Shown here piece after piece: positions 1-61,629 of a stretch of 64,000 nt of DNA. Source of the DNA: Candidatus Latescibacterota bacterium (GTDB lineage: Bacteria; Latescibacterota; UBA2968; UBA8231); assembly GCA_965223905.1 (NCBI GenBank), contig CBDCXV010000010.1, positions 1,920,001 through 1,984,000 of the forward strand, written 5' to 3'. Every line of letters begins with the position of its first letter. Positions within the stretch are counted from its first letter, which is position 1. The translations under genes and the position numbers were made by a program. The notes under the pieces were generated by a model. The model ran no database searches. It was not told the origin of the DNA and saw nothing but the letters and a program-made list of their open reading frames with translations.

Positions 1-27
1 CTGGGGGCGCTGCGGTCGATTTTTTCC

Positions 28-55
28 TTGACCTCCGGGTATTTTTCCATATACT
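28..55 (+). promoter_or_regulatory. Putative sigma70 promoter of the five-gene module (TTGACC-16 nt-TATACT)
   Basis: Near-consensus hexamers. A homologous sequence (TTGAAT-17 nt-TATACT) precedes the paralogous gene at 54031-54059. Confidence 0.6.
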
Positions 56-320
56 GTTACGATTCAATGGAGAGAGACGAGCGCAGGTCATTCACCCATA
101 AAGACCGTAAGTTGTTTATTTACAGCGACTAATAAAGAAGCGGTCGGAGTTGGTTCTGCGCAAAATCACCAGTTCCCGTTTTCTCTCGCTCGCTGAGCGA
201 CTGGTGCGCTGAAAGGAGGTGTCCGACGGAAGCCCGCATTTCAGATATCGGCAGTAGCAATAGTGATCGTTCACGTAGATTTACAGCAGTCATCCTTCCA
301 CACTCAAAGGAGAAGCGAGA

Positions 321-1229
321 ATGAAGAAGATCATTATCATGGGTGCAGTTCTGGGCCTCGTTCTGACCACCTTCACTCCGAGTTCGGCCCACGTGCCATC
401 GGACAAGAACTTTGCGGCAGTGATGGTGCCCATCGGCGTCGATGGAGTCAGGGACCTCTCAGTGGATGGTGATCTCGGCGAGTGGGACAACGTGCCGTCC
501 GCGTTCTGGACCACCCATGATGACCTCGTAGAGTCGATCACCGGTACCCAGGGTGACCCGGATGCGGGCAACCTCGCCGAGCGCATCATCGCCGGCTGGA
601 GCCCAGAGACCAACTTGATTTACGTCATGGAGGAAAAGTTCGACCAACTCTGGTACGGCTCGGTCGAAGAGACCAACGACAACCTCACCATCGCGATCGA
701 TGCGAACCACAGCGGCGGACAGTACTATGGGGAGGCCATAGAGGAGGTATTTTATTCGCGCGAGGCACAGCACTGGAAGACGGTGTTCAACGCGCCCGAC
801 AACCCCATTTTTCTGTGGGGCGGCACGAGTGTGTGGTCCACCGCGGAGCCTTACTCCGGTCTCAGTTTTAGGGTCGACGGCGAGGACGGTGGCGCCGCCA
901 CCCTCTGGGCGGAGAGTTGGTTCACCCCCTTCGACGACCTGCCCAGCGATTCGACCGGTCCCGACGACGAACGCATAATCATCCAAGACCTGACGGAAGG
1001 CAACATCATCGGCCTTGGCTTTGCCGTTCAGGACGATGACAACGGCCCGGGCGAAGGGTACGACGGCTACTGGATCAACACTGGCGACGTCATCATGTAC
1101 TACCACGCCGACGCCCTGGTAGACTACCTGCTACAGGGTTTTAACGAGGACTATTGGGTGGCTGGAGAGAACGTGACAGCGGTCCAGGACGACAGCTGGG
1201 CTCGCATCAAAGCGGGCTTCTCCAACTAA
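321..1229 (+). CDS. Secreted acidic CBM9/DOMON-like protein with C-terminal TAVQDDSWARIKAGFSN motif
   Basis: 302-aa ORF with AAGGAGAA RBS and Sec signal (MKKIIIMGAVLGLVL...SSA). VDGDLGEW and IIGLGFAVQDDD motifs resemble CBM9/DOMON-like folds. Paralog at 54124. Confidence 0.75.
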   Translation: MKKIIIMGAVLGLVLTTFTPSSAHVPSDKNFAAVMVPIGVDGVRDLSVDGDLGEWDNVPSAFWTTHDDLVESITGTQGDPDAGNLAERIIAGWSPETNLIYVMEEKFDQLWYGSVEETNDNLTIAIDANHSGGQYYGEAIEEVFYSREAQHWKTVFNAPDNPIFLWGGTSVWSTAEPYSGLSFRVDGEDGGAATLWAESWFTPFDDLPSDSTGPDDERIIIQDLTEGNIIGLGFAVQDDDNGPGEGYDGYWINTGDVIMYYHADALVDYLLQGFNEDYWVAGENVTAVQDDSWARIKAGFSN

Positions 1230-1273
1230 AGAGAGAGATCGGCTTGTAAGGAGCCAGATCTGGTGTAGTTGAT

Positions 1274-1311
1274 GGGGGGCGAGATCGACGATCCTCGCCC
1301 CCCTTTTTTTT
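1274..1311 (+). terminator. Rho-independent terminator
   Basis: GGGGGGCGAG...CTCGCCCCCC stem followed by T8; conserved after the paralog at 55082-55126. Confidence 0.85.
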
Positions 1312-1327
1312 CGGCAGGGAGAGAAAA

Positions 1328-3979
1328 GTGCGCTCACCGGCGTTTTTGCTAGCAACCTGCTCGGCGTTGACGTTGTCGGCCACATATCCGTGCTGGGGAC
1401 AGGAGGGGTATTCGCTGGAGCCAGGCAGGGTGATCGTCGATTCCAGAGAGCATTGGGAATTCTGGGACTCCGCCGCCAACACGATCCAGATCAGCGATGA
1501 AGGGGTGAAGCCCGCCTTCATCCGCAAGCACACGAGACTGGAAATAGATGGCGGGGAAGTCGTCGTTCCCGGCATCAACGCCGCCCTCAATGCCGCCGAG
1601 TTCGGCGGCGGAATATTAGCTGCCGGATCCAATCGCCCGAGCGACACCGACGTCATGGATGGCAGGATGGACACCTTCTGGGAACCGGACGCGTCCGACC
1701 TGTTGCAAGACCAGTGGCTGCAGATCGATCTGGGGCGGACGGTATCTGCCACCAGGATCGTCCTCAAGTTTGTCGGTGAAGATCTGGGAGACCCCTTTCT
1801 GCAGTTCAGGGTGACCACTTCACAGGGACAGAAGACCCCTACAGGTGGTCAGCTTATTTTCCGGCCACGCTTCACCACGGACAAACCGAGCAAGAACGAG
1901 CGGATTTTCGAGATCGACCTGACCAAACAGCTACCGTCGAGGTGGCCCGATGCACGGGGCGACTTCACCGGCGACGTCATCCGTTACGTCGGGGTGGGCA
2001 TCACGGACAGCGACTTCGGCAGGGGGAGGCAGGTCTCCCAGTCCGAATACGACAGTCTGCCAGCCGACCAGCAGGGAGAGATAGACTACTTCCGACGAGA
2101 GACGTCAGGGAAGGTCAGGTTGCTGGATGGGAAAGAGGATTGGGACGCCCTGGCGGGCACGGAGAGGCAGGGGCCGGTCGAATATTACCGCCGCGAAATA
2201 CCCCGGCTGGCAGAGATCGAGGTCTGGACCATCGGCGACAACATCGGTACGGGCGTACTGGAGCGGGGCGGAAGGGTGACCGACGACGCCGGGGCGAACA
2301 TCAACATTGCGGGGGCCGTGGTAGATGGAGACCTCTACGGCGAGGTGCTGTACTGGACTGCCCTCGCAAGCATTGATCTTGACAGGTTGCCGATTTCGCA
2401 GCCGCGGGATGCGGAGGGCTCGATGTTCATAGATCTCGGAGGCTCCTACTTTGTCGACCATATCAGAATACTCCACGCCATTTCGAACCCACCTCCGTTC
2501 AGAGCCTACCGCATCCAGCTCTCTGACGGCTCCACCAATGCCGGCGGCGAACTGGCCTGGAGGACGGTAGGGTCGATCAGCGACGTCTCGCGGGAGCAGA
2601 CTTTCCACGGCTTCGAATTCCCGCTCACGAAGACGGAGCATTTGGCCTTCACCTACAGGCTCAACGACAAGTCGACGTACGAGCCGGGGCAAGGGAGCCA
2701 CGGCGTGTCGGAGGTCCAGTTTTTCGGGGAAGGCTTCCTGGCGGAGTCGCAGATCTCGTCTGAGTTCGGAGGGGAGTCCCCGTTCATAGAGCTGGGGCGG
2801 ACCCCTCAGAACCTGGCTTCCATCGAGTGGGAGGCCGACGAGCCGCCGGGGACGGATCTCATCCTGCAGACCCGCACCGGCGACACGGTCGAGAGCGTAA
2901 CCCGCTATTTCAAAAAAAACGGGTCCGAATTCCCGGGCACCGAAGAGCAGGCGCGCGAAGCCTGGGAGGACGAAAAGAGTCTCTTCGGGGCTGGCGCTGT
3001 GGGTCCGGTGATAGCCGAGACGAACCCGGGCAGTGACTGGAGTGGCTGGAGTCAACCGTATTTCGATTCCGGTGAAAGGATCACCTCTCCCAGTCCGAGG
3101 AGATACGTCGCCATCCGGGCAATTTTCCTGACGGAAGATCCCATGGCAGCGGCCGCGCTGCGATCCGTGGCGCTGAACTTCGTGACGCCTGTGGCCGGCA
3201 CGATCCTGGGCGAGGTGCTGCCCTCGCGCCTGGAGGAGATCGGCACGAAACAGCAGTTTTCGTATTTCGTCCGCTCCACCTTCCGGTCGGACAGCAGAGG
3301 GTTAGACGAGATCCTCATCGAGGCGCCCGACGGCGTCGACATGAAGCTGAAACAGGTGAACGTAGACGTGACAGGGCAAGAAACCGTAACGTATACGCCA
3401 CAGAGCGAGGGGTTTGAGGTGGTGATGGAGACGGATTCGCTGTGGGTGCGTCTGCCGGCTGCGATCAAGACGACGCGTGGATCGGCGCTGGTAGAGCTTC
3501 AGTTCGAGGCGACCGTGTTCGTCTACAACACGTTTTTCATCGGCTCCATGGGACACTCGCAGTTCGAAGACTCATGGCAGCGGGTGGATGATGGCGACGC
3601 CAACGGGGTTGTGGACAGCGAGACGACGGTGGTGTTGGCACTACTGGAGCAGGGCGAGTTGCTGGGGGATTTGCAGGTCGACAGCGTGTTCACACCCAAT
3701 GGCGACGGCACCAACGACGAGCTGGAGGTCAGTTTTGCGCTGCTGCGGTTGACGGCTGCGGTGCCGGTAGCGATAGAGATCTACGATCTGAGCGGCCGGC
3801 TGGTGACACGGATAGCTCAGGAGACCACGGCGGGTCACCACACGGTGGCCTGGACGGGGGTGGATCAGTCGGGAGCGATCGTGCCACCTGGAATCTATCT
3901 GATGCGCATCGACGTGGATGTGGATTCGACATCCGAGAGCGACACGTCGGTCCATCGATTGGTACACGTCGTCTACTAG
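1328..3979 (+). CDS. Large secreted protein with discoidin-like beta-sandwich segments and C-terminal FTPNGDGxND/FlgD-Ig domain
   Basis: 883-aa ORF with signal peptide, QWLQIDLG and FIDLGG discoidin-like motifs, and C-terminal FTPNGDGTND...IYDLSGRLV...WTGVD...PPGIY...VHVVY. Confidence 0.8.
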   Translation: MRSPAFLLATCSALTLSATYPCWGQEGYSLEPGRVIVDSREHWEFWDSAANTIQISDEGVKPAFIRKHTRLEIDGGEVVVPGINAALNAAEFGGGILAAGSNRPSDTDVMDGRMDTFWEPDASDLLQDQWLQIDLGRTVSATRIVLKFVGEDLGDPFLQFRVTTSQGQKTPTGGQLIFRPRFTTDKPSKNERIFEIDLTKQLPSRWPDARGDFTGDVIRYVGVGITDSDFGRGRQVSQSEYDSLPADQQGEIDYFRRETSGKVRLLDGKEDWDALAGTERQGPVEYYRREIPRLAEIEVWTIGDNIGTGVLERGGRVTDDAGANINIAGAVVDGDLYGEVLYWTALASIDLDRLPISQPRDAEGSMFIDLGGSYFVDHIRILHAISNPPPFRAYRIQLSDGSTNAGGELAWRTVGSISDVSREQTFHGFEFPLTKTEHLAFTYRLNDKSTYEPGQGSHGVSEVQFFGEGFLAESQISSEFGGESPFIELGRTPQNLASIEWEADEPPGTDLILQTRTGDTVESVTRYFKKNGSEFPGTEEQAREAWEDEKSLFGAGAVGPVIAETNPGSDWSGWSQPYFDSGERITSPSPRRYVAIRAIFLTEDPMAAAALRSVALNFVTPVAGTILGEVLPSRLEEIGTKQQFSYFVRSTFRSDSRGLDEILIEAPDGVDMKLKQVNVDVTGQETVTYTPQSEGFEVVMETDSLWVRLPAAIKTTRGSALVELQFEATVFVYNTFFIGSMGHSQFEDSWQRVDDGDANGVVDSETTVVLALLEQGELLGDLQVDSVFTPNGDGTNDELEVSFALLRLTAAVPVAIEIYDLSGRLVTRIAQETTAGHHTVAWTGVDQSGAIVPPGIYLMRIDVDVDSTSESDTSVHRLVHVVY

Positions 3980-3980
3980 A

Positions 3981-5729
3981 ATGATCGGGACATCACCTCG
4001 TAGCGCAGTGGCCCTGCCCGTCTTGTCCGTAGCCCTTCTCGGCCTTGCGACGACGGGCAACGGGGAGACGATCGTCTTCGGAGGCGGCCCAGGCTCTCGC
4101 GCCTGGGATCAGGCTCATTCCGAGGTAACGGCCATCGATTTCGAAGCCACACCCGGTTCCATCCACCCTTTGCTGAACGATCCGGAAGACAATATTGCCC
4201 TGCAGTTGCTTGCACAGGGCGGGCAGATAACATCGCCGAATGCACACATAGAGCTCCAAGTCACCCCGAGTGCGATGGATGGTTTGTTGAACAGGATGGT
4301 GGACGGCAGCGGCAACACCGCCTTCGAGGTCAAGCTCCCGAGGACCACGGGGATCAGATTCAGGGTTGATCTGGGCGAGCGCTTCGGAGTCAACAGGATT
4401 CGATTTGCCCCTCGCGAAGGGTTCGAGGGGTTTTTTCTTAAAGGTTACGAGGTGGCGCTGAACGACGGCAGCGAGGAGCAGACGACCCGTAGCGGATTTC
4501 CCGATTTCCGAGTCTTCAAAAGAACGGAGCGCAATCGAGACCCTGTCGTCGACCTACGCGTGCCGCTGCAGGTCGTCCGTTTCATAGAGGTGAGACAGCT
4601 CGTTCGAGGCGAATGGGAAATCGACGAGTTCCAGGTCTTCGGCGAAGGCTTCGCTCGTGCTGCCGCGTACACCTCGAGCGTGTTCGATGAACGTGGGCCC
4701 GCCGTCTTCGGCGATATCACATGGGCACTCGAGACGATAGGTGAGCCGGTCAAGGTATCTGCTACCGTATCCACCCGGAGCGGCCGCACGCCGGACCCGA
4801 GTGACGGCCAGGAATGGAGTAGATGGTCTTTCCCGTATCCGGCCGGAGCGCCCACACAGATCGAATCGCCTGCTCCCCGTCGCTACTGGCAGTTTCGCGT
4901 TTTGTTTCAGAGCGAGGACATCCGCTCGGCGGCTGTAGTCGATTCGATCGCCGTGGAGGTCTCGCCAGCGCTGGCCGATTCCGTGGTCGGCGAGGTGTGG
5001 CCGCAGAAAGCCGTCGTCGGACCGGCGACCGAGCTGACCTACTGGGTGCGCAGCTACAACAGCGACGGCTTCGACCGGCTCGACATCGAGACGCCGGCGC
5101 GGGTGGAGGTCGTCCGATCGGTGCAGGTCGACGGGTCCGACGTGGCCTGGGACAAGGAGGACATCGGAGACGACCGCGGCGATATCGTCGGCGTCCGCAT
5201 CAGCTTCCCGAGAGTCACTGGCGACGACCGGCTGCTGCGCGTCGTGTTCGAGAGCATCTTGTTGAACTACGACACCGTCTTCGTCGGCAGGGTCTTCGAC
5301 ACCCAGAGACCGCAGCGCCTACCGCTGACGCTGATCCCGGGAGACGTGGCAGCCGACCCGGTGGCCGAGGGCGACGACCTGTCGGTTACCACCCGGGTCG
5401 TCGGCAACCGCATCATCCACGGACTCGATGTCGATCCGACGCCGTTCACGCCCAACGGCGACGGCGTCAACGACGAGACCACGATCACCTACGGCATCGC
5501 CAACCTGACGAGCGTTGCCCCCGTCTCAGTGGTCGTCTACGACCTGGCGGGCCGGCCTCTGAAAGTGGTCTACTCCGGCCACGATGTCAGCCGCAGTTTC
5601 GCAAGACTCTGGGACGGGACCGGCGACGACGGACAGAAGCTGCCACCGGGGCTGTACGTCGTGCGTCTGGAGGTCGATGCGGACACGGGGACGGAGAGCC
5701 GGACGGCGATCGTGCCCATCGTGTACTGA
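3981..5729 (+). CDS. Secreted protein with C-terminal FTPNGDGxND/FlgD-Ig domain
   Basis: ATG at 3981 directly after the previous stop. Signal peptide, VDLGERFGVNRIRF, and C-terminal PFTPNGDGVND...VYDLAGR...WDG...PPGLY...VPIVY. Confidence 0.8.
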   Translation: MIGTSPRSAVALPVLSVALLGLATTGNGETIVFGGGPGSRAWDQAHSEVTAIDFEATPGSIHPLLNDPEDNIALQLLAQGGQITSPNAHIELQVTPSAMDGLLNRMVDGSGNTAFEVKLPRTTGIRFRVDLGERFGVNRIRFAPREGFEGFFLKGYEVALNDGSEEQTTRSGFPDFRVFKRTERNRDPVVDLRVPLQVVRFIEVRQLVRGEWEIDEFQVFGEGFARAAAYTSSVFDERGPAVFGDITWALETIGEPVKVSATVSTRSGRTPDPSDGQEWSRWSFPYPAGAPTQIESPAPRRYWQFRVLFQSEDIRSAAVVDSIAVEVSPALADSVVGEVWPQKAVVGPATELTYWVRSYNSDGFDRLDIETPARVEVVRSVQVDGSDVAWDKEDIGDDRGDIVGVRISFPRVTGDDRLLRVVFESILLNYDTVFVGRVFDTQRPQRLPLTLIPGDVAADPVAEGDDLSVTTRVVGNRIIHGLDVDPTPFTPNGDGVNDETTITYGIANLTSVAPVSVVVYDLAGRPLKVVYSGHDVSRSFARLWDGTGDDGQKLPPGLYVVRLEVDADTGTESRTAIVPIVY

Positions 5730-5770
5730 TCGTTTCCGAATCACTCGAAGAGAGACAGGGGAGGATCGCA

Positions 5771-8479
5771 ATGATGACCGGTCACGCAGTTCGGGTGGCG
5801 GTGCGTGCGTCGCGGCCGCTGGCCATCGCCGCCGCCGTCGTCCTGGTACTGGCGCTGGCCTTCACGCAGGCCGATGCGCAGGGATTCGAGCACGACCGAC
5901 TGACGGGCACGCGACGAGCCGGCGAGCTCACGTTCGAGCCGACCGGGCCCGGTGTCCTGTTCGGCGCTCTGGATCCCGCGGTCAGGAAGTGGTACGTCCC
6001 ACAGGAGCTGTTTCACGAGTTTCGGTGGAAGCAGTGGGAGTACAGCAACTACGCGAGAGATCGCTACCAGCGCTATGTCCGGACCAATCTCCAGGGGGAC
6101 TACTTCTACGACATGTACGGTTCGTACATAACCAGAGGATGGCTGGTCTACGACTGGAGCCAGACCCAGCCCGAGCAGGGGGGAAGCAACCTGTTCAAGA
6201 CCGACATCTTCAGTGGCTTTTTCAGCAAGGTGGTCGTGGCCTCCGACCAGAAGGGACAGCACCATCTGGCTGTCACCGTGGGCGAGAAGATCCGGTCGAC
6301 CCTGACCCCGATGACCTTCTCCAAGCCGGCCTTCGACGGCATTCAGGTGGACTATCAATCCGACAAGTACGAAGTGACGGCGCTCCTCTCGCGCATCAGC
6401 TCGCCGGGTGAAGCCGCCGGAGGGCGAAGCTCCATCAACCAACAGACGAGCTCGACGACCCTTACCGGGGGGCGCGCGACCGCCCAGGTTGGAGACTATC
6501 TCAAACTCGGCGCCAACTACGTGAACGCCCACAACTCCTCTCAGCTCCTCGATGCCTTCGAGGGCAGCCCGCGAAGCGGGTCGATCGTCTCCAGTCAGAA
6601 AGCGGACAACGTCACCCGGGTCTTCGTGCGACTCTCGGACGACTCGCCAGGTGACGGCGAAGGTGCCACGCTGTTCGCCTGGGACTTGATCATAGAGGCC
6701 GACGTCGAGACGATCGATGAAGCGGGGAATGTGAGTTTCGAGAGAGAGGTTGTCCGGGCCAGCGAAGTCGGGCTGATCCCCGCGCCCCAGGGCGGCTTTC
6801 AGAGGCTCGGGTTCTGGGAGGCGAGCGGCTCCGAGCAGATCGAGCTGGTCTACGACTTCTCGGTGGGGACGTACACCGGCCCGGATCCGTCAGAGATAAG
6901 AAGGGTGACCATCGAGCTGGTGGTGGCCAATGACTACAGGATCGAGACGACGTCGGACCGCCAGTTCGACAGGGATTTGGCCAGCGTCTACTTGCTGGCT
7001 GCCAGGGCCGACGACAACGTCAAGGATGGCTCCAACCTGACCGTCCTCAAGATCCCGTATGGTCTGCCGACGGCCACCGAGATATTCGGGCTCACACTGG
7101 AAGCGACCCGCCTCTGGGGATTCGACCTCTACGGAGAATGGGACCGCAGCGTCAGTTACAGGAAGTACCCCAACAGGGCGCACACCAGGCACTTGGGGGG
7201 CTCCGACGAAGCCGACGGCTGGATGGTGAATCTGTCGAGAATCGCCCATCCTTTCTTCCTCTTCGGCGAAGCCTATAGCATGGCCGCCAACTACAACACC
7301 TCCGTTATAATGGCCAGGGGCGAAACCAACATAGACTACTCGGACAAGGGCAGATTCTTCTACGAGCTCGTCGACGACAACGACGATCAGGACAGGTTCC
7401 CCGACTGGCAGAGGCTGTTCCAAGACAAAGACATCGAGGTGTTCCCCGGGTACGACGAGAACCTCGACTTCATATCCGATTTCAACCAGAACGACAGCGT
7501 GGATCTTCCCAATCGCGTCCCGGACTACGACGAACCTTTTCTGCGATACGGAACCGACAAGCCGGAATACCTGTTCGGCATTGACATGAACAACAACCTC
7601 TGGGTGGATCGGTTCGAAAACGACGATGAACCCGATTTCCCCTACCCCAGGGACCACGAGGGATACAACATCTACGGCGGCGTCGACCTGCTTCCCGGCA
7701 TCAGGCTCACCGTCGGACGAACGGATGAGAGATTGATCGCCGGCGGGGGGGAAAACAAGACCCACTACATGCTCTTCGTCCTGGAACAGGACTACCCGGG
7801 TCTCGGAAGGCTGAAGATCTTCGAGAACATCAAAATCGCCAAGGACACCATACCGAACGGTCTTCGCCAGTGGAGCGAGACCGAGCGGCGGAACCTTCCA
7901 ACCGGCGATCCCCTGGCGGCTCGGGACACGTGGATAAACTCCACGTTCATGAGCTTCAAGTCCACGGCGATCGAGGATGTGAATTTCGTGAGTAAACTCA
8001 AATACGATCGCTGGCACCAAAACCAACGACAGCCCGATCTGCGGGAGAACTACACCTTCTTCGGTCTCATCAACAAGGTGGACCTCGAACGCAAGGTGGC
8101 CCGTGTCGATCTCATGCCGAGAATAAAGAACGAGCTCAGGCTCGAGTCTCCGCCGGGCAGATTCGATGCCAAGCGCAGGGAAGACACGGTGCAGCTCTCC
8201 CTGCTGGCGCGATGGCCGCTGTTCGCCTCCTCCTCCGTCCAGGCCGGCGTCGAGTACTCGATCTTCAACCAGCTGCGCAAATCCGAGACCGCGGTCAGGG
8301 AGGGACTGCTCGACGATTTCACCGAAATCGTCGGAGCGCTACAGTTCACGAACAACACCAGCTACCATGGTTACCGCCTGGTGACGAACATGGGCATGAG
8401 ATTGACCAGAAGATCGATAGACGACGAGACCGAGACGGGCAGAGTCGCCTTTGCCACGATGTATGCCGGTCTGGACTAA
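5771..8479 (+). CDS. ~900-aa exported hypothetical protein, probable outer-membrane beta-barrel
   Basis: ATG at 5771 after GGGAGGA. Signal peptide ending ADA-QG, Asp/Asn-rich loop motifs and alternating hydrophobic/polar C-terminal segments. Very similar paralog at 58882-61593. Confidence 0.7.
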   Translation: MMTGHAVRVAVRASRPLAIAAAVVLVLALAFTQADAQGFEHDRLTGTRRAGELTFEPTGPGVLFGALDPAVRKWYVPQELFHEFRWKQWEYSNYARDRYQRYVRTNLQGDYFYDMYGSYITRGWLVYDWSQTQPEQGGSNLFKTDIFSGFFSKVVVASDQKGQHHLAVTVGEKIRSTLTPMTFSKPAFDGIQVDYQSDKYEVTALLSRISSPGEAAGGRSSINQQTSSTTLTGGRATAQVGDYLKLGANYVNAHNSSQLLDAFEGSPRSGSIVSSQKADNVTRVFVRLSDDSPGDGEGATLFAWDLIIEADVETIDEAGNVSFEREVVRASEVGLIPAPQGGFQRLGFWEASGSEQIELVYDFSVGTYTGPDPSEIRRVTIELVVANDYRIETTSDRQFDRDLASVYLLAARADDNVKDGSNLTVLKIPYGLPTATEIFGLTLEATRLWGFDLYGEWDRSVSYRKYPNRAHTRHLGGSDEADGWMVNLSRIAHPFFLFGEAYSMAANYNTSVIMARGETNIDYSDKGRFFYELVDDNDDQDRFPDWQRLFQDKDIEVFPGYDENLDFISDFNQNDSVDLPNRVPDYDEPFLRYGTDKPEYLFGIDMNNNLWVDRFENDDEPDFPYPRDHEGYNIYGGVDLLPGIRLTVGRTDERLIAGGGENKTHYMLFVLEQDYPGLGRLKIFENIKIAKDTIPNGLRQWSETERRNLPTGDPLAARDTWINSTFMSFKSTAIEDVNFVSKLKYDRWHQNQRQPDLRENYTFFGLINKVDLERKVARVDLMPRIKNELRLESPPGRFDAKRREDTVQLSLLARWPLFASSSVQAGVEYSIFNQLRKSETAVREGLLDDFTEIVGALQFTNNTSYHGYRLVTNMGMRLTRRSIDDETETGRVAFATMYAGLD

Positions 8480-8511
8480 GGCATAGACGCGAGCTTGAGT
8501 GGAAGTACACG

Positions 8512-10185
8512 ATGCGCGCTTTTTCTCTCTTCTACGGAGCGCTAGTGGCGAAAGCGGGCTGCGTGTCAGTGGCTCTCCTCTTGGCTTTCGCTGGCTGCGG
8601 ACCCCAGGATGAGAATCCCACGGTCGCGGAGGTCGGAGACCGGGCGATCACGGCCCAGGATGTGCAGGCTTTCATCGACAGACTGCCCGAGAACGCCGGT
8701 GGCGAAGGGGCCGGAAAGGAGCAGCTGAGAGACCATCTGCAGACCATCATCGACTTTGAGCTGATGCTGATGGAAGCCCGAAGCCAGGGCATCGAGAGGA
8801 GTTCCGCCTACCTGACCAGGATGGACCGGATCAGGAAGTCGAAGCTCGTCGGCGAGTACGAGCGAAGGTTTATCGACACAACGCTACAAGAGGGCGAAGT
8901 AGAGGAGTACATAGAGCGGGAGAACCTCGCGCGCGCCATCAAACTGGCCGACATCCTGGTGGCCGACCTCGAGACGGCTGAGCAGGCTGTGAGGGAGATC
9001 GAGTCAGGGGCGAGTTTCGCCGACGTCGCCAGGAAGCTGTCGATGAACGAGCAGACGGCTGCCCGGGGCGGGGACACGGGCCGTTTCCGGACCAGGGACC
9101 AGCTGTTTCCCTCCCTCGCCGAGGAGCTGTTCGGGCTCGAGGTGGGCTCGGTGTCAGATCCGGTGCGAATCGGGAACCGTTACGCCGTCTTCAAGATCCT
9201 CGATGACACGACGGCTCAGCTCAATCGGGGGCAGTTGACGAAGATCGCCGAAAACCTTCAGAGAGAGAAATACAGAGTCGCGAAAGCCGAGCTGGTGGCT
9301 GAACTGACCGATCAATACAGCCTCGAGCCGGTCCCGGACGGCATCGCCGCCTGCGTCGAGGCACTGCGCGCCGGCGCGGGGGACCTCGGCCACGACCCGT
9401 CCGCGATCGTCCTCTTCAGGTACGACGGCGGAGAGGTCACAGCTGCCGACCTGATCGTCGCGGCCAGAGGCCGCAAGGGCACCGTCCTGGAGTCACTCCG
9501 AGACCCTGAGCAGGTGGTCTCCTTTGCCGAGGAGAACATCATCCCGGACAAGATGATTCAGGAGGCGGCCGTGCGCCTGGGCATCGATCGGGAAGAGGCT
9601 GTGGTTCAATGGCTCGAACAGCAGGGGAAGCAGACATTGGCTGAAGCTCTCAGATCCTCCGTGTTGAGAGAGAGAGTGAATATCACCGAAGACGACCTGC
9701 GCCAGTATTACGAGGCCAATGCTGAGAGATTCCTGCACCCCGAACAAACAGAGGTACAGGAGATCCTCGTGGGAACAGAGGCAGAAGCACTACGGCTGAA
9801 AGCGATGATCGAAGACGGCGGCTCCTTTGGCGAGCTGGCGAACAAACATTCTATCCGGTCGCTGGAGGTGCGTGATGACGAGGGTCGATTCCACGTGCAC
9901 CGGCACGAATCGCCTCAGTTCGGCGGTTTCGTGGAGGCAGCGGTCGAGGCCGAAATCGGCGCGCTCACGGGACCGGTTGAGGTGCAGGAGGGCTACTCCA
10001 TCTTCAAGGTGCTCTCCAGGGAGCGCAAGCGCGAGACCTTCGACGAAGCTGAGTTCAGGGTCAAATCCCAGCTCAGACGAAAGACACACCGGGACGCGTT
10101 CAACGGGTATATGGAAGAACTGCGCAGCCGGTACGAGTCAGAGGTGGCGATTCACGAGGACAGGCTCGAGGCGGCAGACACCTGA
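8512..10185 (+). CDS. Peptidyl-prolyl cis-trans isomerase lipoprotein with two parvulin (PpiC/SurA/PrsA-like) domains
   Basis: Lipobox LLLAFAGC and two rotamase motifs (GASFADVARKLS...GGDTG; EILV...GGSFGELANKHS...GPVEVQEGYSIFKV). Confidence 0.85.
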   Translation: MRAFSLFYGALVAKAGCVSVALLLAFAGCGPQDENPTVAEVGDRAITAQDVQAFIDRLPENAGGEGAGKEQLRDHLQTIIDFELMLMEARSQGIERSSAYLTRMDRIRKSKLVGEYERRFIDTTLQEGEVEEYIERENLARAIKLADILVADLETAEQAVREIESGASFADVARKLSMNEQTAARGGDTGRFRTRDQLFPSLAEELFGLEVGSVSDPVRIGNRYAVFKILDDTTAQLNRGQLTKIAENLQREKYRVAKAELVAELTDQYSLEPVPDGIAACVEALRAGAGDLGHDPSAIVLFRYDGGEVTAADLIVAARGRKGTVLESLRDPEQVVSFAEENIIPDKMIQEAAVRLGIDREEAVVQWLEQQGKQTLAEALRSSVLRERVNITEDDLRQYYEANAERFLHPEQTEVQEILVGTEAEALRLKAMIEDGGSFGELANKHSIRSLEVRDDEGRFHVHRHESPQFGGFVEAAVEAEIGALTGPVEVQEGYSIFKVLSRERKRETFDEAEFRVKSQLRRKTHRDAFNGYMEELRSRYESEVAIHEDRLEAADT

Positions 10186-10191: not shown

Positions 10192-13100
10192 CTACTGTTC
10201 CGCAACGCCCAGCGCGCCGATGGTGGCGCCGTCTTTGCCGGCGCCGATGTTCGGGCTGTCAGGCTTGAGGCGGAAGTCCCAGTTCTCAGGATCGACGTAA
10301 AGCGGGTCCTTGAAGATCGTGTGTCTGTCCTTGCCGGTGGTTTCCTGCCAGGCTTTCAGGCTGTTGAAGCGCTTCCCGTTCAAGCGGATCACCGCTTTTG
10401 AGCTGGCGGTACGAAGGAACGGGTCGGCGGGAACGATTTTGTCACCGGGATCCGGGCTCCCCAGAATCGTGGCGAGGTTGTTGTAGTCGCTGTCAAAACG
10501 TCTCGAGTTCTTTCTCGCTCTGGTAGGCGACAAGGTACTGATCATTGCCGCTGAAGCAGAAGGAGTTGTTGTGGCTCACGGTGCCCTCGGCCGAGTAGAC
10601 GAATTTGACGGCCCCGTACATGTTCCTCAGAATGGTGTTGTGCGTCACGCGCGAGTGAGGGCTCTGGAGCAGGTAGATGCCCTGTTCCATTTGGAAGATC
10701 ACGTTGTGGTCCGCCGTCACTCCCGGCGAGCGGTGGGCGAAGATGCCGGAGCCGACCGGCCAGCCCATCCAGAAATCGTTCCAGATGCGGCAGCCCTCGA
10801 CGGTTACGTGGGGGGAGTCGGCGATGTACACCCCGGCCCGCTTGTACCAGCGCAACTCCAGCCCGCGAATCACCACGTACGGTGCCTTGTCAAGACGCAG
10901 ACAGGCCTCGCTCTCGCGTCGCCCGTCGAGCACGACAGTGCCCGCACGCTCCGCCTCGATGGTGATGGGGGCGTCCTCGAGCCCGCCGTGGCTGAGCGTG
11001 GTCTCGCCAGCATAGAGTCCCGGAAGCAGAACCACCCGATCGCCGGGGAGGGCCCGTTCAACAGCGAACTGAAGCGTGCGCCAGGGCGCCTCTCGCGAGC
11101 CGCGTCCGTCCTCGTCCGTGCCCTCCGGGGAGACCCAGTAGGATGCCGGCGCACCCTGCAACGTGAAGCTGGCGTCGTCGGTCACGGTGCGATTCCCCAC
11201 CTCATCCTCAAGCACGAGGCGATAGTGGTAAGTCTGGCCGGGCGTGACGCGGGGCGGAAGCAGCGCGAGGAAGTTGGTTACGCGCGGTTTCGAGCGGATT
11301 TCGACCCAGTCCCCGCCGTCGGCCGCGATCCAGGAGCGCCGCATGTTCTTGGGTTGTTCGAACACCGAACCGTAGGTGGTATCCGCTCCGAACTCCACCT
11401 TCGCCAGACAGGGGACGTCCGTCTCGAATGAGATGACCACGCCGTTGGCATTCGCGTAGAGCACAGGCCCGGCCTTGAGCCGCGGGGCACTGGTGGCCGT
11501 CCGCAGCATGAGTGAAACCGGTTCACTCCAGTTTCCGGCCGCGTCCGTCACGCTGACGCTGACCGCGGTCGGGCCTGCGGTTCGAGGGAGCTTGACGCTC
11601 TTGCGCACGCCTCCGCGTCCGCGTCCGCCACGGACACGCTGACCGCGCAGGAACGGTTCGGGCTCGCCCCCCGGAGCGTTACCGACACGCACCTTCATGC
11701 GGACCGGCCTGCTCACGGCATCTTGCGCAGTGACTTTGAGAGTGACCTCGTCAGTAGGCGAGACCCATTCGTCCAGGCGCCCTTCGGGCGGCAGCGTGCG
11801 CACCAAGTTCCTCCCGCCCCCTTGCCAGGGGTCGCCCTCAAAGTAGAGTTCGCCGGACCCGCCGACACGAGATGCGGGCGGCTCGACGGCGACCTCCACG
11901 TCGGGGGGGCGCTTGTCCTCGAACTCCGGCCCCACTATTCCAAACGCCCCGGCTGACTCGCCGTTCGGGCCCATGCGGGCGCACGGACTCCCCGGCAGCA
12001 ACCGATAGTCTCCCGCAGCCTGGTTGGCGAACAGTGGGTCGGCGACGATTGTGTGCATGCCCGTGCCGACTCTCCGCGGTTCTTCGAGACACTCGTGCAG
12101 CGCACTCGTTTCGCGACTGTCCCAGAAGCAGTTGTAGTCGACCACGTTGGTCGGGTGGAGTATTTCGGGATGCAAAATCATCCGCGAGAACCCCGTGGCG
12201 ATGTTGTAACGGAACACGGACTTCGGACCCCAGCTTCTGCAGCCGATTCCGTAGGTGATGCCGTCCAGACACGTATTGTGCTCGACAATGAACTCACTGA
12301 CCTTGCACTTCACAAAGATGCCGCTGCCAAACCCCACAACCAGATTGCGGCGCACCTCGCCGCCGGAGGCCGGATAATAGTACTGAATGCCGCAGTCGTC
12401 TTGCGGATAGGCCGGGACCATGAAGCCGTCCGGATCTTGTAGAACCGGCAGTCCTCGACCACAGTCCCCGTGCCCATCGAGTACACCCCGCCCGCACAGT
12501 CGTCGGTCCGGCAGCGGACGAAGCGCGTGCCTGTCAGTCCAATTGCGTCGCTGATCTCGCTGACCATGACCTGGAACCCGCGTACGGAGTTCGAGACAGA
12601 GCAATCTTCAGCCGCGGTGTCCGCACCGCGCAGTTCGACCCCGGCCGAATAGCGCCATGCCAAGAAATTGCGGAATTGCAGTCCGCGGACAGTCACGTTC
12701 GGACGCCAGAGTGTGATGCCGTTCTGGTTCCTACTCATCGCCATGTCGTGGGCCGACGGCGGCCGGTTGTCGGACGTGTGGAAGTACGCTTCGGTGTTCG
12801 TATGCCAGAAACTCGCGGGGAACTGCTCGACCGCGGCCAGGTCGGCGACAAGCATGTAGCGCGTGCGCGTGTCCGCCTCCCACATGTGTGTACGGCGGTG
12901 GTAGCTGAATTGACCTTCGACCTTATAGATGCCGGGCTTGCCCGGTACCGGGTCGGCTTTGGTGATCTTCCGTCCCCCGTCCAACACGACGTCCTCGAAG
13001 CTGCCGTCCGGCTTCTTTGCAGCGCGGATCAGCAGGAGGGGTCGCGCTCCGCCCAGCCGGTCGTTGTGGTTGCCGACTTGCACGTCGCCGGGGTAGATGC

Positions 13101-16131: not shown

Positions 16132-17614
16132 ATGGCAGACGCAACTGCGGCCCGGCCTGTCGGGACACGCAAACAGCTTCTGTTTGACCGTCGCTTCGTC
16201 GAGTCGTCCGAGGGTCTGCAGTTCACGGTCAATCCCCCCCTTCAGCGTACACCCGTCAATCTGCCGTCCCTCTGCGGCCTGCACCACAGCGGCGGTTTGA
16301 CGGTACTCGACGTCGACGGACGTCTATGGCTGTACTACCTCATGACTCCGAACGAGACGCGTGAGCCTGATGTTCTAGCGCAGATGTACTGCCTGGCCTA
16401 CTCGGACGACGGCATCGACTGGGAGCTGGCGCAGGTGGACCGGTTCGAGGTGGCGGGACTGGCTCGGAACAACGTGGTCATGCCCGGCGCGGCCGGTAAC
16501 GGTGTTCCTCGACCCCCAGGAGACGTGCGGTTGCCGATTCTGGTTCGCGGGATCCCTGGGCGAGCGCACCGAGCCGCCGATCTGGGACGAGGGCCGGGGC
16601 GCGTACTTCGGCTACTTCGACAACCGCCGAGTAGTCCATGGCGCGGTCTATCTGCTCCACTCCGAGGACGGCATATCGTGGCGCCGGCTGCGAAGCGGCG
16701 TCGTGGTTCCCTTCCGCTGCGACACGCAGAACCAGGTCCTCTACGATGCCGGCGCCGGCGCCTACGTCGCATATCTGCGCGGCGCGGCGGCCGCGGGTAC
16801 GTGGGGGGCCCGGGCTGGGGGAGAAGGCGGACGGTCGCCCGCCTGACCTCGCCCGAGCTCACGCAGTTGCCGTTCGACTTCCGTGAGGACACGACGCTGC
16901 CCAGGAGCCCGGTCGGGCTTTAGGACCGGCTGCCGCCGCAGTGCGCGCCGGTGGTCAGGCGGGTGACGAGCGCGATCCGCCGGCCACGGACGTCTACACG
17001 CCCTGCGTCAAACCCGTACGTATGGGCGGACGACGCCATCTTTGCCTTCCCATCCGTGTTCCGGCAGTACGACGGGCAGGACAGCCATGGGCGGGACCAT
17101 CGAGGGCACGCCCTACGTTGGTCCTGGTCTGATAGACGAGCCGCAGCTCGGAGGGATGGTCTACATGGGAGTAGGGCTGGTCCGGCGGGGGAACTTCATC
17201 TACCAGTACTACACCGAGGATGCGCGCACCCACAATCTCCCCCGTCTCCAGCACGGCGGCGTGCGCATCTGGCAGGCCAAACAGCGTCTGGACGGTTTCG
17301 TCTCGGCGGACATCGGGCCGGCTGGCGGACATCTCGTCACGCCACCGATCGTGTTTGCAGGGAACCGTCTGCAGCTGAACATCGACTGTGGTGCGACGGG
17401 CGAAGCGTGGGTCGAACTCCAGGATGAAACCGGCAAGCCGTTAGCCGGGTAGACCTTCGAGGACGCCGTTTCGCTGGACCGGAACGGTGTCGCGCAGGAG
17501 GTCTGGTGGCGGCCCGGCCCGGACGTCGGCTCGCTGAGGGGCCGGCCTGTCAGGTTGCGCGTCACGATGCGTTCGTTGAAGCTCTACGCCTTCCAGTTCG
17601 TGGAGGCCGGCTGA
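16132..17614 (+). pseudogene. Degenerate beta-propeller hydrolase-like gene of the same family
   Basis: KQLLFDRRF...AYSDDGIDW...DTQNQVLYD...RLDGFVS...KLYAFQF spread over several frames, with an in-frame TAG at ~17450. Confidence 0.7.
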
Positions 17615-17718
17615 AGGGGGCGCGCCGAGCGGCGATTCTTGAAAAGGCACCGCGGTCCGGTTGGCCGGTCGCTCATATGGCAGATTCCCGACGCACCGTC
17701 CGAAAGGAGATAGCTCAC

Positions 17719-19746
17719 ATGAAGAAGGCAATGCTTGTCATTGTGGCGGCGCTTGTAGTAGCGCTCGCTCTGCTGTTTTCCTGCGGCCGGGAAGAAAGCC
17801 ACGCACCCACCGGCGAACGGGACGCGGCGGGGGCCGCGGTGTCCACCAACGAGCTCGGAAAGGTCGTGAACAAGAGCTACGAGTCCGTGGATCCCAGGAC
17901 CGGGGATACGGGAACGGTCGAGATTGAGCGGTTTCAGGCCTCTCCCATGTGGAAGGAGATGGTTGAGGCCGGCAAGCTCCCACCCATAGACGAGCGATTG
18001 CCTGAAGAGCCCCTGGTTATCAAGCCGATCGAGAGCATCGGGAAGTACGGCGGCTGGATGGTGAACCTGCGGACCGCCCAGCGCCGTGCCTGGTCAAGAA
18101 ATCTGCAGTACGAGTGGCTGGTCAGCTGGACCTATCCCTACTTCGAGCGCCTGAACCCCAACGTGGCCAAGGGTTGGGAAGTCTCCCCCGACACGCGAAA
18201 GACGACTTTCTTCCTGCGCAAAGGCATGAAGTGGAGCGACGGAACGCCCTTCACCGCCGACGCGATCACCTGGTGGTTCGACCACATCATCCTCAACGAC
18301 GAGCTCTACCCAATCAAACCGGGGGTGTTCATGACCAGGGGGAACCTGCCCACCGTCCGCAGGCTCAACGAAACCACGGTCGAGTTCGCATTCACGGATC
18401 CCCACCCCATGTTCGTGGAGAGCATGGCCCGGTGCCGGCCCATGCCGTACGCACCCGGACACTACCTGGAGCAGTTCCATCCCGACTTTGCCGGGAAGGA
18501 AGACATAGAGAAGATGATGGAGGAAGGCGGCTTCGACATCTGGGCCGACTTCTTCCGCAGCAAGTGGGACTTCTACGGCAATCCCGATATTCCCACCATC
18601 AGCGGCTGGAAGGCGATCAACTACCAGGAAGAAGTGATCTTCAAGGTCGAGCGGAATCCTTACTACTGGAAGGTCGACACCGAAGGCAAGCAGTTGCCCT
18701 ACGCGGACGGCATGGAATACGCTTTGGTGCAAAACGCCGAGACATGGCTCTTGAAAGTAATGGCGGGTGAGCTCACCTGGGCTTTCGGCAGCTCCATTGG
18801 CGGATTGGCCAACCTGCCGCTCGTGCTGCAGAACCAGGACAGGGGAAACTACCGGGTCGTGAACCCATATTGGCCCCCCAACAACGTCTGCACCACGTAC
18901 TTCAATTTCGTCAATTCTAATCCCGCAAAGAGGAAGATCATCAACGACCGGAAGTTCCGTCTTGCCCTGCTCAAGGCCATCGACTGGGAAGAGGTGAACG
19001 AGATCATTTACGACGGCGGCGCCGTGCCGACGTGGCCGCGATCAGTGGCGCCGTACGATCCGGATAGCCCTCTGTTCCAGACCCACATCGGCCGGGACAT
19101 CAGCGAAGCCAATCGGCTTCTGGATGAGATGGGTCTCACGGCCAGGGACAGCGACGGCTTCCGGCTCGGCCCGGACGGGAAGGAGCTCATCTTCGTGACG
19201 GTTACTATGACGAACTCGCCCCCCGAGGCCGCCGAGGTCGCTGAGCTCTATCGCGGGTACTGGCGGGAAGTGGGCATCAGGACCGTGGTCAAGTCGCAGA
19301 GCCCCCAGTTCGTCACGGAGATGATGCTAGCGGGTGAGTACGATCTCCACCTGCGCTGGGGGGCCCCGGGCGGGCGTCCCATGAACGTCTTCACTCGCGG
19401 GCAGTTGCTTCCCATCCATGGGTGGTGGTTGGTTTGCCCCCCGTGGGGCAGGTGGACGTCCAGCGGCGGCGAGGAAGGTGAGGAGCCGCCGGAGTACATC
19501 AAGCGGCTCTACGCGATCTACGAAGAGGGCATGGTCGAGCTGTCGGACGCGAAGCGCAAGGATCTCGTCATGGAGGCATTCAAGATCTACGTTGACCATC
19601 TCCTGATGCTTCCGGGATTCGAAGCGAAGCGAGCCACGTACACCGTGGTGACGAAATCGCTGCGGAACTTCAGTGTGAACGACGAGCCGTATGGAACAAC
19701 GGAGTTCCCCATTATTCCCTCGCAGACTTTCTATTTCGACGACTAG
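17719..19746 (+). CDS. ABC transporter substrate-binding lipoprotein, family 5 (Dpp/Opp type; could bind oligosaccharides)
   Basis: GAAAGGAGA RBS, lipobox LLFSC, GKLPPIDERLPEEP, FLRKGMKWSDGTPFTAD, ERNPYYWKVD. Confidence 0.9.
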   Translation: MKKAMLVIVAALVVALALLFSCGREESHAPTGERDAAGAAVSTNELGKVVNKSYESVDPRTGDTGTVEIERFQASPMWKEMVEAGKLPPIDERLPEEPLVIKPIESIGKYGGWMVNLRTAQRRAWSRNLQYEWLVSWTYPYFERLNPNVAKGWEVSPDTRKTTFFLRKGMKWSDGTPFTADAITWWFDHIILNDELYPIKPGVFMTRGNLPTVRRLNETTVEFAFTDPHPMFVESMARCRPMPYAPGHYLEQFHPDFAGKEDIEKMMEEGGFDIWADFFRSKWDFYGNPDIPTISGWKAINYQEEVIFKVERNPYYWKVDTEGKQLPYADGMEYALVQNAETWLLKVMAGELTWAFGSSIGGLANLPLVLQNQDRGNYRVVNPYWPPNNVCTTYFNFVNSNPAKRKIINDRKFRLALLKAIDWEEVNEIIYDGGAVPTWPRSVAPYDPDSPLFQTHIGRDISEANRLLDEMGLTARDSDGFRLGPDGKELIFVTVTMTNSPPEAAEVAELYRGYWREVGIRTVVKSQSPQFVTEMMLAGEYDLHLRWGAPGGRPMNVFTRGQLLPIHGWWLVCPPWGRWTSSGGEEGEEPPEYIKRLYAIYEEGMVELSDAKRKDLVMEAFKIYVDHLLMLPGFEAKRATYTVVTKSLRNFSVNDEPYGTTEFPIIPSQTFYFDD

Positions 19747-19758
19747 ACTGCCCCTACT

Positions 19759-19782
19759 GGGGACAACCTTCGGGTTGTCTCT
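19759..19782 (+). other. UUCG-tetraloop hairpin between the binding-protein and permease genes
   Basis: GACAACC-TTCG-GGTTGTC with no U-tract; position typical of an mRNA-stabilising stem. Confidence 0.5.
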
Positions 19783-19827
19783 GGTGTTTCGTGTCACTGC
19801 ACAGATCGTCCGGAGACAAGCTTTGTC

Positions 19828-21918: not shown

Positions 21919-21929
21919 GGAATTTCGAT

Positions 21930-22937: not shown

Positions 22938-22943
22938 GATGAG

Positions 22944-53744: not shown

Positions 53745-54030
53745 GTTTTCTGGCCCGCCAGCGGTGACGTGCAGGTCTTTGAGAATGTCGAAATGGGCCA
53801 GACCCTCGTCATTCGCGAGGGGGACCCCCTTCCGACCGCGCTCAGGTTCGAGCCCTTCGAGATTCCTGGCATGGACGGGTCGGGGCAGCACGAGCACGCC
53901 CGCCATGGGCCTGGCCACCAGGACTAGCCCGTGGCTGGAGCTGAAGTCCATTGCATTGTGAGCGAACCTTCGAGCTGTCCCACGGCCGTATGCACCATGG
54001 GCTCCTGGGGGCGCTGCGGTCGATTTTCCC

Positions 54031-54059
54031 TTGAATCTCCGGGTATATTTTCATATACT
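54031..54059 (+). promoter_or_regulatory. Putative sigma70 promoter (TTGAAT-17 nt-TATACT)
   Basis: Homologous to 28-55. Confidence 0.6.
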
Positions 54060-54123
54060 GATGCTTACAATTTCCATAACTGTATGATTCAATTCTACAG
54101 ATGAGATGAAAGGAGAACCAACC

Positions 54124-55038: not shown

Positions 55039-55081
55039 GGAGAAAGATCGGCTGTAAGGAGCCAAAACGGCTGTTGTTGAA

Positions 55082-55126
55082 GGGGGGCGAGATCGTCGTT
55101 GATCCTCCTCGCCCCCCCTTTTCTTT
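55082..55126 (+). terminator. Rho-independent terminator
   Basis: GGGGGGCGAG...CTCGCCCCCC followed by a T-rich tail. Confidence 0.8.
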
Positions 55127-58864: not shown

Positions 58865-58881
58865 CCCGTATGATGCTCCTG

Positions 58882-61593: not shown

Positions 61594-61629
61594 GTGACTC
61601 CCTCCTACCTTTCGAGTAATTGCGAACAA

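Follow-up and report, generated by a model that had tools for sequence, protein, structure and literature searches.

In a 64,000-nucleotide stretch of the genome of a Candidatus Latescibacterota bacterium (GenBank assembly GCA_965223905.1, contig CBDCXV010000010.1, positions 1,920,001 to 1,984,000; hereafter the window), five consecutive genes, G1 to G5, form one intact copy of a multi-copy lectin and barrel cassette that is typical of this Latescibacterota lineage. G1 encodes a secreted protein with the predicted fold of a family 9 carbohydrate-binding module (CBM9), G2 and G3 encode discoidin proteins with a C-terminal domain (CTD) resembling that of type IX secretion system (T9SS) cargo, G4 encodes a predicted outer-membrane β-barrel and G5 a predicted lipoprotein with parvulin peptidyl-prolyl isomerase (PPIase) domains. 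The cassette is a known principle, that of a cognate barrel for T9SS cargo, amplified in the manner of polysaccharide utilization loci (PULs) around what modelling indicates is a new barrel family. Our favoured reading, to which we assign a probability of about one half, is that T9SS-exported lectins dock on the cognate G4 barrel and make up a glycan-capture complex.

The genome that contains the window (7.9 Mb, 93.6% complete, from a sponge-associated Latescibacterota) holds 50 stretches that match G4, 20 of them full-length at 39-100% identity. Once merged, they give 21 loci, several with tandem barrels, where G4-like stretches number at least 27. A discoidin-CTD gene resembling G3 (termed D) lies within 1 kb of the barrel at 20 of the 21 loci, a G1 relative within 10 kb at 12 and a G5 relative within 10 kb at 11, with all three present at 7. 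Seen from the side of the lectins, 40 of the 54 places that encode a D protein are within 10 kb of a G4 gene.

The same association is found in related organisms. Genomes sampled at one per species encode a G4 relative at 462 loci. Among the best 80 of these, a set of non-independent loci drawn from a few dozen related genomes, D is present at 79, G1 at 65 and G5 at 64; at the 60 of the 80 that have full 9-kb flanks, the corresponding numbers are 60, 55 and 57. Almost all of the best 80 belong to metagenome-assembled genomes (MAGs) of Latescibacterota, and some carry the depositor labels Gemmatimonadota, Handelsmanbacteria or Planctomycetota. A CTD-tailed open reading frame (ORF) ends no more than 450 nt upstream of 78 of the 91 barrel genes in the related loci, and the other 13 barrel genes follow another barrel (10), a parvulin gene (2) or another gene (1). 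A discoidin-CTD gene of the G3 type and the barrel make up the conserved core, which often includes extra D paralogues such as G2; G1 and the parvulin commonly accompany this core and are dispensable. In a sample of the phylum, 70 of 121 genomes have a G4 match at E up to 1e-20; the other 40 genomes of the family to which the window belongs all have one, and the 29 and 13 genomes of two sister families all lack it.

An initial annotation, made from the sequence of the window without database searches, had proposed a single lineage-specific system and had looked to conserved gene order elsewhere for its test. The synteny is indeed strongly conserved, with D at every one of the 60 related loci with full flanks. 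What was taken for one system is a single member of a set of 21 paralogous loci, and its family comprises hundreds of clusters at 50% identity. In the literature searched, we found no paper that describes the cassette or that links Latescibacterota with the T9SS, although supplementary gene tables could include these genes. A genomic study of Latescibacteria (PMC4454575) mentions non-specific porins and Plug-domain receptors, and the passages of it considered here do not contain this cassette.

The lectin-like character and the secretion-type tail of G2 and G3 are both apparent from profile matches. G2 matches the Pfam models F5_F8_type_C_2 (46.4 bits) and F5_F8_type_C (35.1 bits) and, in its tail, CHU_C (PF13585; 33.3 bits, profile positions 2-77 of 86) and FlgD_ig (33.1 bits), for each of which the cut-off is 27. 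G3 matches F5/8 type C weakly and CHU_C at 34.1 bits (cut-off 27; profile positions 6-77 of 86). Two type-B CTD proteins had been called by eye, and both tails do reach the Pfam cut-off. With the NCBIfam models for the type B (TIGR04131) and type A (TIGR04183) tails, G2 scores 21.4 and 22 bits and G3 scores 20.8 and 17.8 bits, all below the cut-offs of 35 and 23. Judged by these scores, the CTD of G2 and G3 appears to be intermediate between the type A and type B models.

Two observations concern CTD genes more widely. An orphan discoidin-CTD gene on the reverse strand (27419-29386) consists of three frame segments, has a CTD with up to 43% identity to that of G3 and has no adjoining barrel gene; it is either a pseudogene or affected by assembly indels. 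A 34-nt stretch coding for FTPNGDGVND (5444-5477 and 63641-63674) keeps 94% identity in CTD genes that have diverged elsewhere, and RNA contigs of several paralogues join and diverge at this stretch, with loose ends at 5448 and 5478.

G4 has no match in Pfam or NCBIfam, 42 aligned homologues have no relevant Pfam match even at E up to 10, and a profile of the G4 alignment finds nothing among PDB sequences at E up to 1. In the structural model, residues 228-900 are all-β, with 27 strands of at least seven residues (pLDDT 66, pTM 0.65), and the protein is predicted to be a membrane β-barrel and not the soluble enzyme that the initial annotation had named as the contrary outcome. All structural matches are membrane barrels and none is outstanding (Foldseek TM-score below 0.25 or root-mean-square deviation (rmsd) of 5-14 Å). 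The fold-match Z scores are 13.8 for SlpA/SDBC (7zgx_A), 13.7 for FhaC, 13.3 for TamA, 13.2 for FimD, 11.1 for PapC, 10.9 for LptD and 9-12 for SusC; OprB is also among the barrel matches, and 8ae1_A has a Foldseek E value of 1.6e-7. The Foldseek comparison envisaged at the outset could be made and returned generic barrels, ushers and SusC included, from which no family can be named. Conservation in G4 is highest in the N-terminal ~170 residues and in an Asp/Asn-rich insert at about 535-625, and the fold searches in effect cover the protein outside residues 28-227 and 535-625.

Comparisons with other databases likewise give G4 no name. Its 30 nearest clusters in the ESM Atlas are all uncharacterised. 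A lead from the same resource, DUF6029 (PF19494; 0.88-0.89), was discarded: none of 43 members of the G4 family has a match to its hidden Markov model (HMM), and the sole DUF6029 match in the genome (C11:981936-982748) is not a G4 gene. SlpA-type giant barrels of Deinococcus are the top structural matches, and one of five divergent G4-like paralogues has a weak match to SlpA_C (PF21620; 19.9 bits against a cut-off of 35); G4 itself has none, and it differs in its TM-score below 0.25, in having no SLH domain and in its genomic context and copy number. A search of 1.84 billion representatives at 50% identity finds at least 1000 relatives of G4 at E up to 0.001, 720 at 1e-10 and 333 at 1e-30. On the strength of the model and these searches, we propose that G4 represents a new outer-membrane barrel family.

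The fifth gene had been called a parvulin, which its matches to Rotamase_2 (83.8 bits) and Rotamase (72.4 bits), in two stretches each, confirm. The SurA_N_3 match of G5 (25.6 bits) is just below the cut-off of 27.2, and its N terminus has a lipobox-like LAFAG↓C. G5 shares with the SurA, PrsA and PpiD chaperones two parvulin domains, a region resembling the SurA N terminus and export. It differs from them in being a predicted lipoprotein and in its copy number: the genome has 19 places that encode a G5-type parvulin, 11 of them beside a barrel cassette, which suggests that the copies are client-specific rather than one general chaperone. We infer, in keeping with the initial annotation, that the barrel may serve as the platform and the PPIase as a dedicated foldase.

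Components of a T9SS are encoded in the genome. SprA is found at 607.6 bits with its neighbours in frame, and PorU at 617 bits, over its cut-off, next to a PorV-like gene at 91 bits against a cut-off of 250; the PorU search listed 51 matches, nearly all of them to its CTD-like tail on other ORFs. PorP/SprF (TIGR03519) has no match in the genome, with the control genomes silent too, and neither G4 nor any of its 42 homologues matches PF11751 up to an E value of 10. With no PorP/SprF match in the genome, the role of this protein seems to be unfilled. Another lectin-barrel cassette (G000:C10:1123030-1142603) is found some 5 kb away from the SprA gene (G000:C10:1147256-1152502), a closeness that may be due to chance.

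In the mechanism we favour, G2 and G3 would use Sec to pass the inner membrane and the T9SS to pass the outer one, and would then be handed over to and held on the cognate G4 barrel. G4 would have the part that falls in Bacteroidota to the small PorP/SprF barrels of type-B CTD cargo, G2 and G3 would constitute with G1 a glycan-binding surface complex, and G5 would chaperone the barrel or the cargo in the periplasm. The cognate-barrel logic is suggested by the D-then-barrel gene order together with the CHU_C-type tail and a T9SS translocon for which no PorP is detected. Glycan capture is suggested because discoidin and CBM9 are binding-type folds and the operon has no catalytic domain. Of the two functions first offered for these genes, a surface structure or glycan capture, the latter agrees with the predicted CBM9 fold in G1 and with the discoidin domains found in G2 and G3. 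The barrel might also import the captured glycans, in a Sus-like manner.

Precedent is provided by the type-B cargo of Bacteroidota, which, in the sections of the two papers on which we draw, is bound and anchored by PorP-like barrels (PMC9143113) and is encoded by genes linked to those of cognate PorP/SprF shuttles that are needed for secretion (PMC12618676). The pairs SprB-SprF of Flavobacterium johnsoniae and PG1035-PorP of Porphyromonas gingivalis share with our cassette a gene for a CHU_C-tailed secreted protein adjoining a barrel gene (PMC9143113, PMC12618676). Many cognate pairs per genome and some orphan cargo genes are further common features, and SprA and PorU are present here. The Latescibacterota cassette differs in its 902-residue barrel, which has a conserved N-terminal domain, an Asp-rich insert and no PorP/SprF signature, in its cargo-then-barrel order, in the additional parvulin lipoprotein and CBM9-fold protein, and in occurring outside the Bacteroidota in a genome in which GldK, GldL and GldM are not detected and the CTD falls between the type A and type B models.

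Several points weigh against docking and glycan capture. The tails score about 21 bits with TIGR04131, well under the cut-off of 35, and type-A-like models score equally; because the scores are intermediate, a CTD that is retained (type B) and one that is cleaved by PorU (type A) are both possible. The conserved regions of G4 (residues 28-227 and 535-625) are modelled at pLDDT below 50, PorP/SprF barrels are about one third the size of G4 and show no sequence relation to it, and the binding of G4 to its partners is putative. A co-fold of G4 (residues 36-902) with the G3 CTD scored 0.00 in two runs, for which controls were not run, and speaks neither for nor against docking. GldL and GldM have no match in the 93.6% complete genome, where the controls were silent as well and GldN was not searched, and GldK gives partial matches of 92 bits against a cut-off of 350. 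With GldK, GldL and GldM not detected, the canonical T9SS motor is unconfirmed here, a conclusion that the silent controls limit; in the genome check suggested by the initial annotation, SprA is found, and PorU and a PorV-like protein are present besides. At 30 of 43 genes of the G1 family, the nearest barrel is more than 10 kb away. Within the operon, no gene was recognised as encoding a glycoside hydrolase, and sulfatase genes show no enrichment around the cassettes (3 of 22 within 20 kb). Finally, the RNA-library contigs considered below may contain DNA, their depth cannot rank genes, and bins of low cover (for example 2833-3540) are uninformative.

Sus-like uptake is a tenable alternative, if one we would not favour. 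Here G4 would be a gated nutrient channel with its N-terminal ~170 residues as the plug, and D and G1 would be its glycan-binding partners, giving an analogue of SusC-SusD/E/F in which T9SS cargo replaces surface lipoproteins. The SusC/SusD PULs of Bacteroidota are likewise amplified cassettes that pair an outer-membrane barrel of about 900 residues with carbohydrate-binding-type surface proteins, and the expansion to 21 loci per genome is PUL-like. G4 is in the SusC size class, has TonB-dependent and SusC structures among its matches (5t3r_D, Z 11.9; 8aa4_A, Z 9.3), and has the conserved N-terminal domain and Asp-rich insert expected of a plug or gate. The neighbours are also shared with PULs, with an Opp-type ABC importer in the window, a putative lyase gene adjoining the operon and an enrichment of FG-GAP/ASPIC genes. 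However, neither G4 nor its 42 homologues match Plug, TonB_dep_Rec or CarboxypepD_reg at E values as high as 10, G4 has no recognisable TonB box, and the barrel matches are generic, with SusC rows at 8-9 Å rmsd that do not rise above other barrels. The cassette also has no SusD-like lipoprotein, none of the five proteins having a SusD-family match; its binding proteins have T9SS tails or a separate C-terminal tag in place of lipid anchors; and neither glycoside hydrolases nor other carbohydrate-active enzymes were recognised in the operon. An unlikely further explanation is adhesion or host interaction, in which the discoidin and CBM9-like proteins would be sponge-symbiont adhesins for host or matrix glycans, anchored by G4 with no import. 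The presence of 71-78% of sampled words of this DNA in sponge-metagenome runs, the origin of several related MAG records in similar assemblies and the lectin domains without a catalytic partner in the operon agree with this, and the precedent type-B cargoes are adhesins in the parts of the literature used here (PMC9143113, PMC12618676). It sits less well with the presence of the family in further MAGs, those with no hint of a host in their record titles, and with the putative lyase and ABC importer genes nearby, and the 21 diverged loci fit substrate diversity at least equally well.

Two further readings start from known barrel operons. The initial annotation had compared the genes with fimbrial systems, which would make G1 a polymerising subunit, G4 an usher and G5 a chaperone. 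G1 does have its own terminator hairpin and a contig depth of 65-114, against 1-10 for G2-G5, in a measure that cannot rank genes, and FimD (Z 13.2) and PapC (Z 11.1) are among the barrel matches of G4. The analogy nevertheless fails on every defining feature and we consider it very improbable: G1 is modelled as a complete CBM9 jelly-roll and not the incomplete immunoglobulin fold of a pilin, G5 is a double parvulin and not a PapD-type chaperone, G4 and its homologues have no Usher (PF00577) match and usher structures do not stand out, and the tag of G1 occurs on at least seven unrelated families, most of them far from G4. The same annotation had recognised none of the five proteins as PapC/PapD, PorP/SprF or SusC/SusD, and the HMM searches agree. 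E. coli has an lptD-surA operon, and a housekeeping envelope pair of this kind, with G4 and G5 as an LptD/BamA-type barrel and SurA, would accord with a large barrel gene followed by a SurA-like gene and with the LptD structure match (Z 10.9). The genome has 21 such loci, with 27 or more stretches that resemble G4, and 19 places that encode a parvulin; G4 has no LptD, OstA or Bac_surface_Ag match, and the barrel is tied to lectin-CTD genes; copy number and linkage together refute such a pair for practical purposes.

Under the favoured docking model, G1 would be a third glycan-binding component. It has no match in Pfam or NCBIfam, and none to CBM9_1 (PF06452) at E up to 0.1; another protein of the same genome with the same C-terminal tag scores 22.3 bits with CBM9_1, against a cut-off of 23.4. 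A profile search of PDB sequences with the G1 alignment finds nothing at E up to 1. The structural model, built on 36 homologues (pLDDT 80.5), superposes on the CBM9 of Thermotoga maritima Xyn10A (1i82_A) with Z 18.7 and an rmsd of 2.5 over 185 of 189 residues, and Foldseek matches range in E from 1.8e-10 (7nwn) to 2.3e-9. The next-best structures, a putative carbohydrate-binding protein of Bacteroides and the haem subunits EbdC (2ivf_C) and NxrC (7b04_C), have the same superfold. We take G1 to share with 1i82 the start motif DG-x-L-x-EW. It differs from known CBM9 modules in being a stand-alone secreted protein instead of a module of an enzyme, in being missed by CBM9_1, and in adding an invariant His at the predicted mature N terminus and a sorting-type tag at the C terminus. 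All 106 database homologues are unnamed or 'hypothetical', and none has a Pfam domain.

The predicted mature N-terminal residue is His24 (nt 390-392), position +1 of a signal-peptide cleavage site predicted by eye; without exception, the 36 aligned homologues (24-62% identity) have a His there. H130, in a DxDHSGG motif, is nearly invariant, and a set of Asp and Glu residues is invariant; in a subgroup of the G1 paralogues of this genome, Gln replaces the N-terminal His. A His as the predicted first mature residue is also a feature of the histidine-brace copper proteins (such as lytic polysaccharide monooxygenases), and the conservation pattern raises the possibility that the G1 family carries an N-terminal metal site on a CBM9 fold.

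The C terminus of G1 (1185-1229) has the tag xAVExx(S/T)W(G/A)x(I/V/L)Kxx(F/L), with 1-4 more residues before the stop; neither Pfam nor NCBIfam has a model that matches this tag. The core motif has 123 six-frame matches genome-wide, of which 83 are at most 4 residues from a stop and about a dozen more are within 20. With the tail removed, the 89 tagged ORFs of at least 150 residues fall into at least seven unrelated groups (43 G1-like, 9, 6, 6, 4, 2 and 2) plus singletons, and include PD40 propeller, BNR/sortilin and FlgD-Ig proteins. In all, roughly 100 secreted proteins bear the tag, often in tandem arrays (for example G000:C6:3073-7683 and G000:C1:171589-175433). The three genomes of the genus to which the window belongs contain a strict WGRIKA coding pattern 30, 52 and 68 times and its backward reading 0 times; the pattern is rare in the barrel-less sister families. 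Within 10 kb of barrels, which is 6.5% of the genome, lie 13 of 43 G1-family proteins and 4 of 46 other tagged proteins. Because only the G1 family is enriched there, the tag looks like a general sorting or anchoring signal, and a candidate new one, rather than one specific to the barrel; the idea that it targets G1 to G4 is weakened by the other tagged families, which are not enriched near G4.

A bolder combination of these elements seems to us doubtful. It would make the cassette a surface machine that replaces Sus-type PULs, with T9SS lectins on gated importing barrels of about 900 residues that each have their own parvulin, with G1 as a possible copper histidine-brace protein of a new oxidative polysaccharide-active family, and with xAVExxSWGRIKAxF as a new sorting or anchoring tag.

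The layout of the locus is given in the table below. The intergenic gaps between the five co-oriented genes are 98, 1, 41 and 32 nt, and G3 has a possible alternative upstream ATG at 3918. Each protein has a charged-then-hydrophobic N terminus with a maximum 10-residue hydropathy of 2.1-3.2, in agreement with the five exported products first described; the export signals and the lipobox of G5 were judged by eye. A single promoter had been proposed for all five genes, which finds partial support. The site upstream of G1 does fall inside a 56-nt stretch that is conserved ahead of both G1 copies (1-56 and 54005-54060, 89% identity by blastn), but sigma-70-like sites are not above chance (3 in 10.6 kb against 1.9 ± 1.2 in shuffles) and a hairpin separates G1 from the genes behind it. 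This hairpin is GC-rich (-24.7 kcal/mol, z -3.94; 1 of 200 shuffles equally good) and has an equivalent 3' of the second G1 copy; a terminator scan missed it, probably because its loop exceeds the limit of the scan, and it was folded directly instead. Because a hairpin with U8 follows both G1 copies, G1 is probably its own transcription unit, with read-through into a tightly packed G2-G5 operon.

Table: Features of the cassette and of its second copy in the window (positions in nt of the window)
Feature	Position	Strand	Description
Sigma-70-like promoter match TTGACC-16-TATACT	28-55	+	Upstream of G1; score 10/12
G1	321-1229	+	302 aa; secreted, CBM9-fold, C-terminal tag TAVxxxSWARIKAGFSN
Terminator-like hairpin + U8	1274-1311	+	Between G1 and G2
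G2	1328-3979	+	883 aa, GTG start; discoidin (F5/8 type C) and CTD aa 783-883 (nt 3674-3976)
G3	3981-5729	+	582 aa; paralogue of G2, lectin-like; CTD aa 488-582 (nt 5442-5726)
G4	5771-8479	+	902 aa; predicted outer-membrane β-barrel
G5	8512-10185	+	557 aa; lipoprotein, SurA-like N-terminal region, two parvulin PPIase domains
Second G1 copy	54005-55126	+	ORF 54124-55038; with conserved upstream stretch and terminator hairpin
Second G2-G5 copy, partly decayed	57244-64000	-	By blastn and indel comparison
G5b	57244-58864	-	Frameshifted
G4b	58882-61593	-	
G3b	61630-63360	-	
G2b	63380-64000	-	Runs past the window end

The duplication within the window was noticed at the outset and is recovered by blastn, with an inverted match of 3362-10167 to 63996-57244 (83.3% identity over 6851 nt) and a direct match of 306-717 and 846-1311 to 54109-54517 and 54661-55125 (74-77% identity). 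Protein identity between the two copies is 55% for G1, 68% for G3 and 88% for G4. Relative to G5, G5b has indels of +1, -1, -45 and +1 and a premature stop, and assembly indel errors are a possible source of its frameshifts. Past the window end, G2b is interrupted by two insertions (G000:C10:1984880-1989690), which from the N termini of their ORFs we presume to be an IS21-like element and a group II intron-like element with a reverse transcriptase. The second cassette copy appears from its sequence to be decaying. A third, intact G2-like gene lies beyond it (G000:C10:1990419-1993064). An IS66-family transposase gene (52180-53685, reverse strand) stands between the two cassette copies, and together with the inverted duplication it suggests a recent rearrangement.

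The surroundings of the cassette fit a nutrient-acquisition setting without proving it. Convergent with G5 is a gene for a 703-residue β-helix protein (10493-12604, reverse strand) that matches chondroitinase B at 20.7 bits, below the cut-off, and may be a polysaccharide lyase; a PL22-like gene adjoins another cassette. An Opp/Dpp-type ABC importer (17506-24002, forward strand) is made up of two permeases, two ATPases and a solute-binding protein of family 5, and oligosaccharides or peptides liberated at the cell surface could be its substrates. FG-GAP/ASPIC-UnbV (CRTAC1-like) genes are found at 24076-25812 and 30027-31352 (both reverse strand) and just upstream of the window (G000:C10:1919591), and 27 of the 51 FG-GAP/ASPIC-UnbV genes of the genome are within 20 kb of a G4, a zone that covers 11% of the genome. 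The gene at 47343-49328 (reverse strand) encodes a protein with DUF6785 and DUF6784 (423 bits).

The region is represented in sponge RNA libraries. Runs labelled as sponge metagenomes hold 71-78% of its sampled words, and in four sponge RNA libraries, all of one study, contigs cover 28-29 of 30 bins of the region at 95% likeness or more. The mean word depth of these contigs, which cannot rank genes, is 65-114 for G1 and 1-10 for G2-G5 across the four libraries. This only hints at a much greater abundance of G1 and at termination of most transcripts by the hairpin, and the many G1 homologues that are found on contigs of about 1-1.3 kb point in the same direction.

The T9SS and outer-membrane glycan capture are known almost solely from the Bacteroidota, and the cassette described here belongs to an uncultured phylum of the Fibrobacterota–Chlorobiota–Bacteroidota (FCB) group that is often encountered in sponges and sediments. 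Some twenty loci in a genome are devoted to it, around a central barrel that has no relative in Pfam, NCBIfam or the PDB. From the G1 tag or its N-terminal His, a novel sorting signal or a novel family of metal-binding lectins could emerge. If the barrel is an anchor or shuttle, the cognate-barrel rule for type-B cargo would hold outside the Bacteroidota too, and for a barrel of quite another kind; should the barrel transport as well, the cassette would be a second, independent answer to the problem that SusCD solves.

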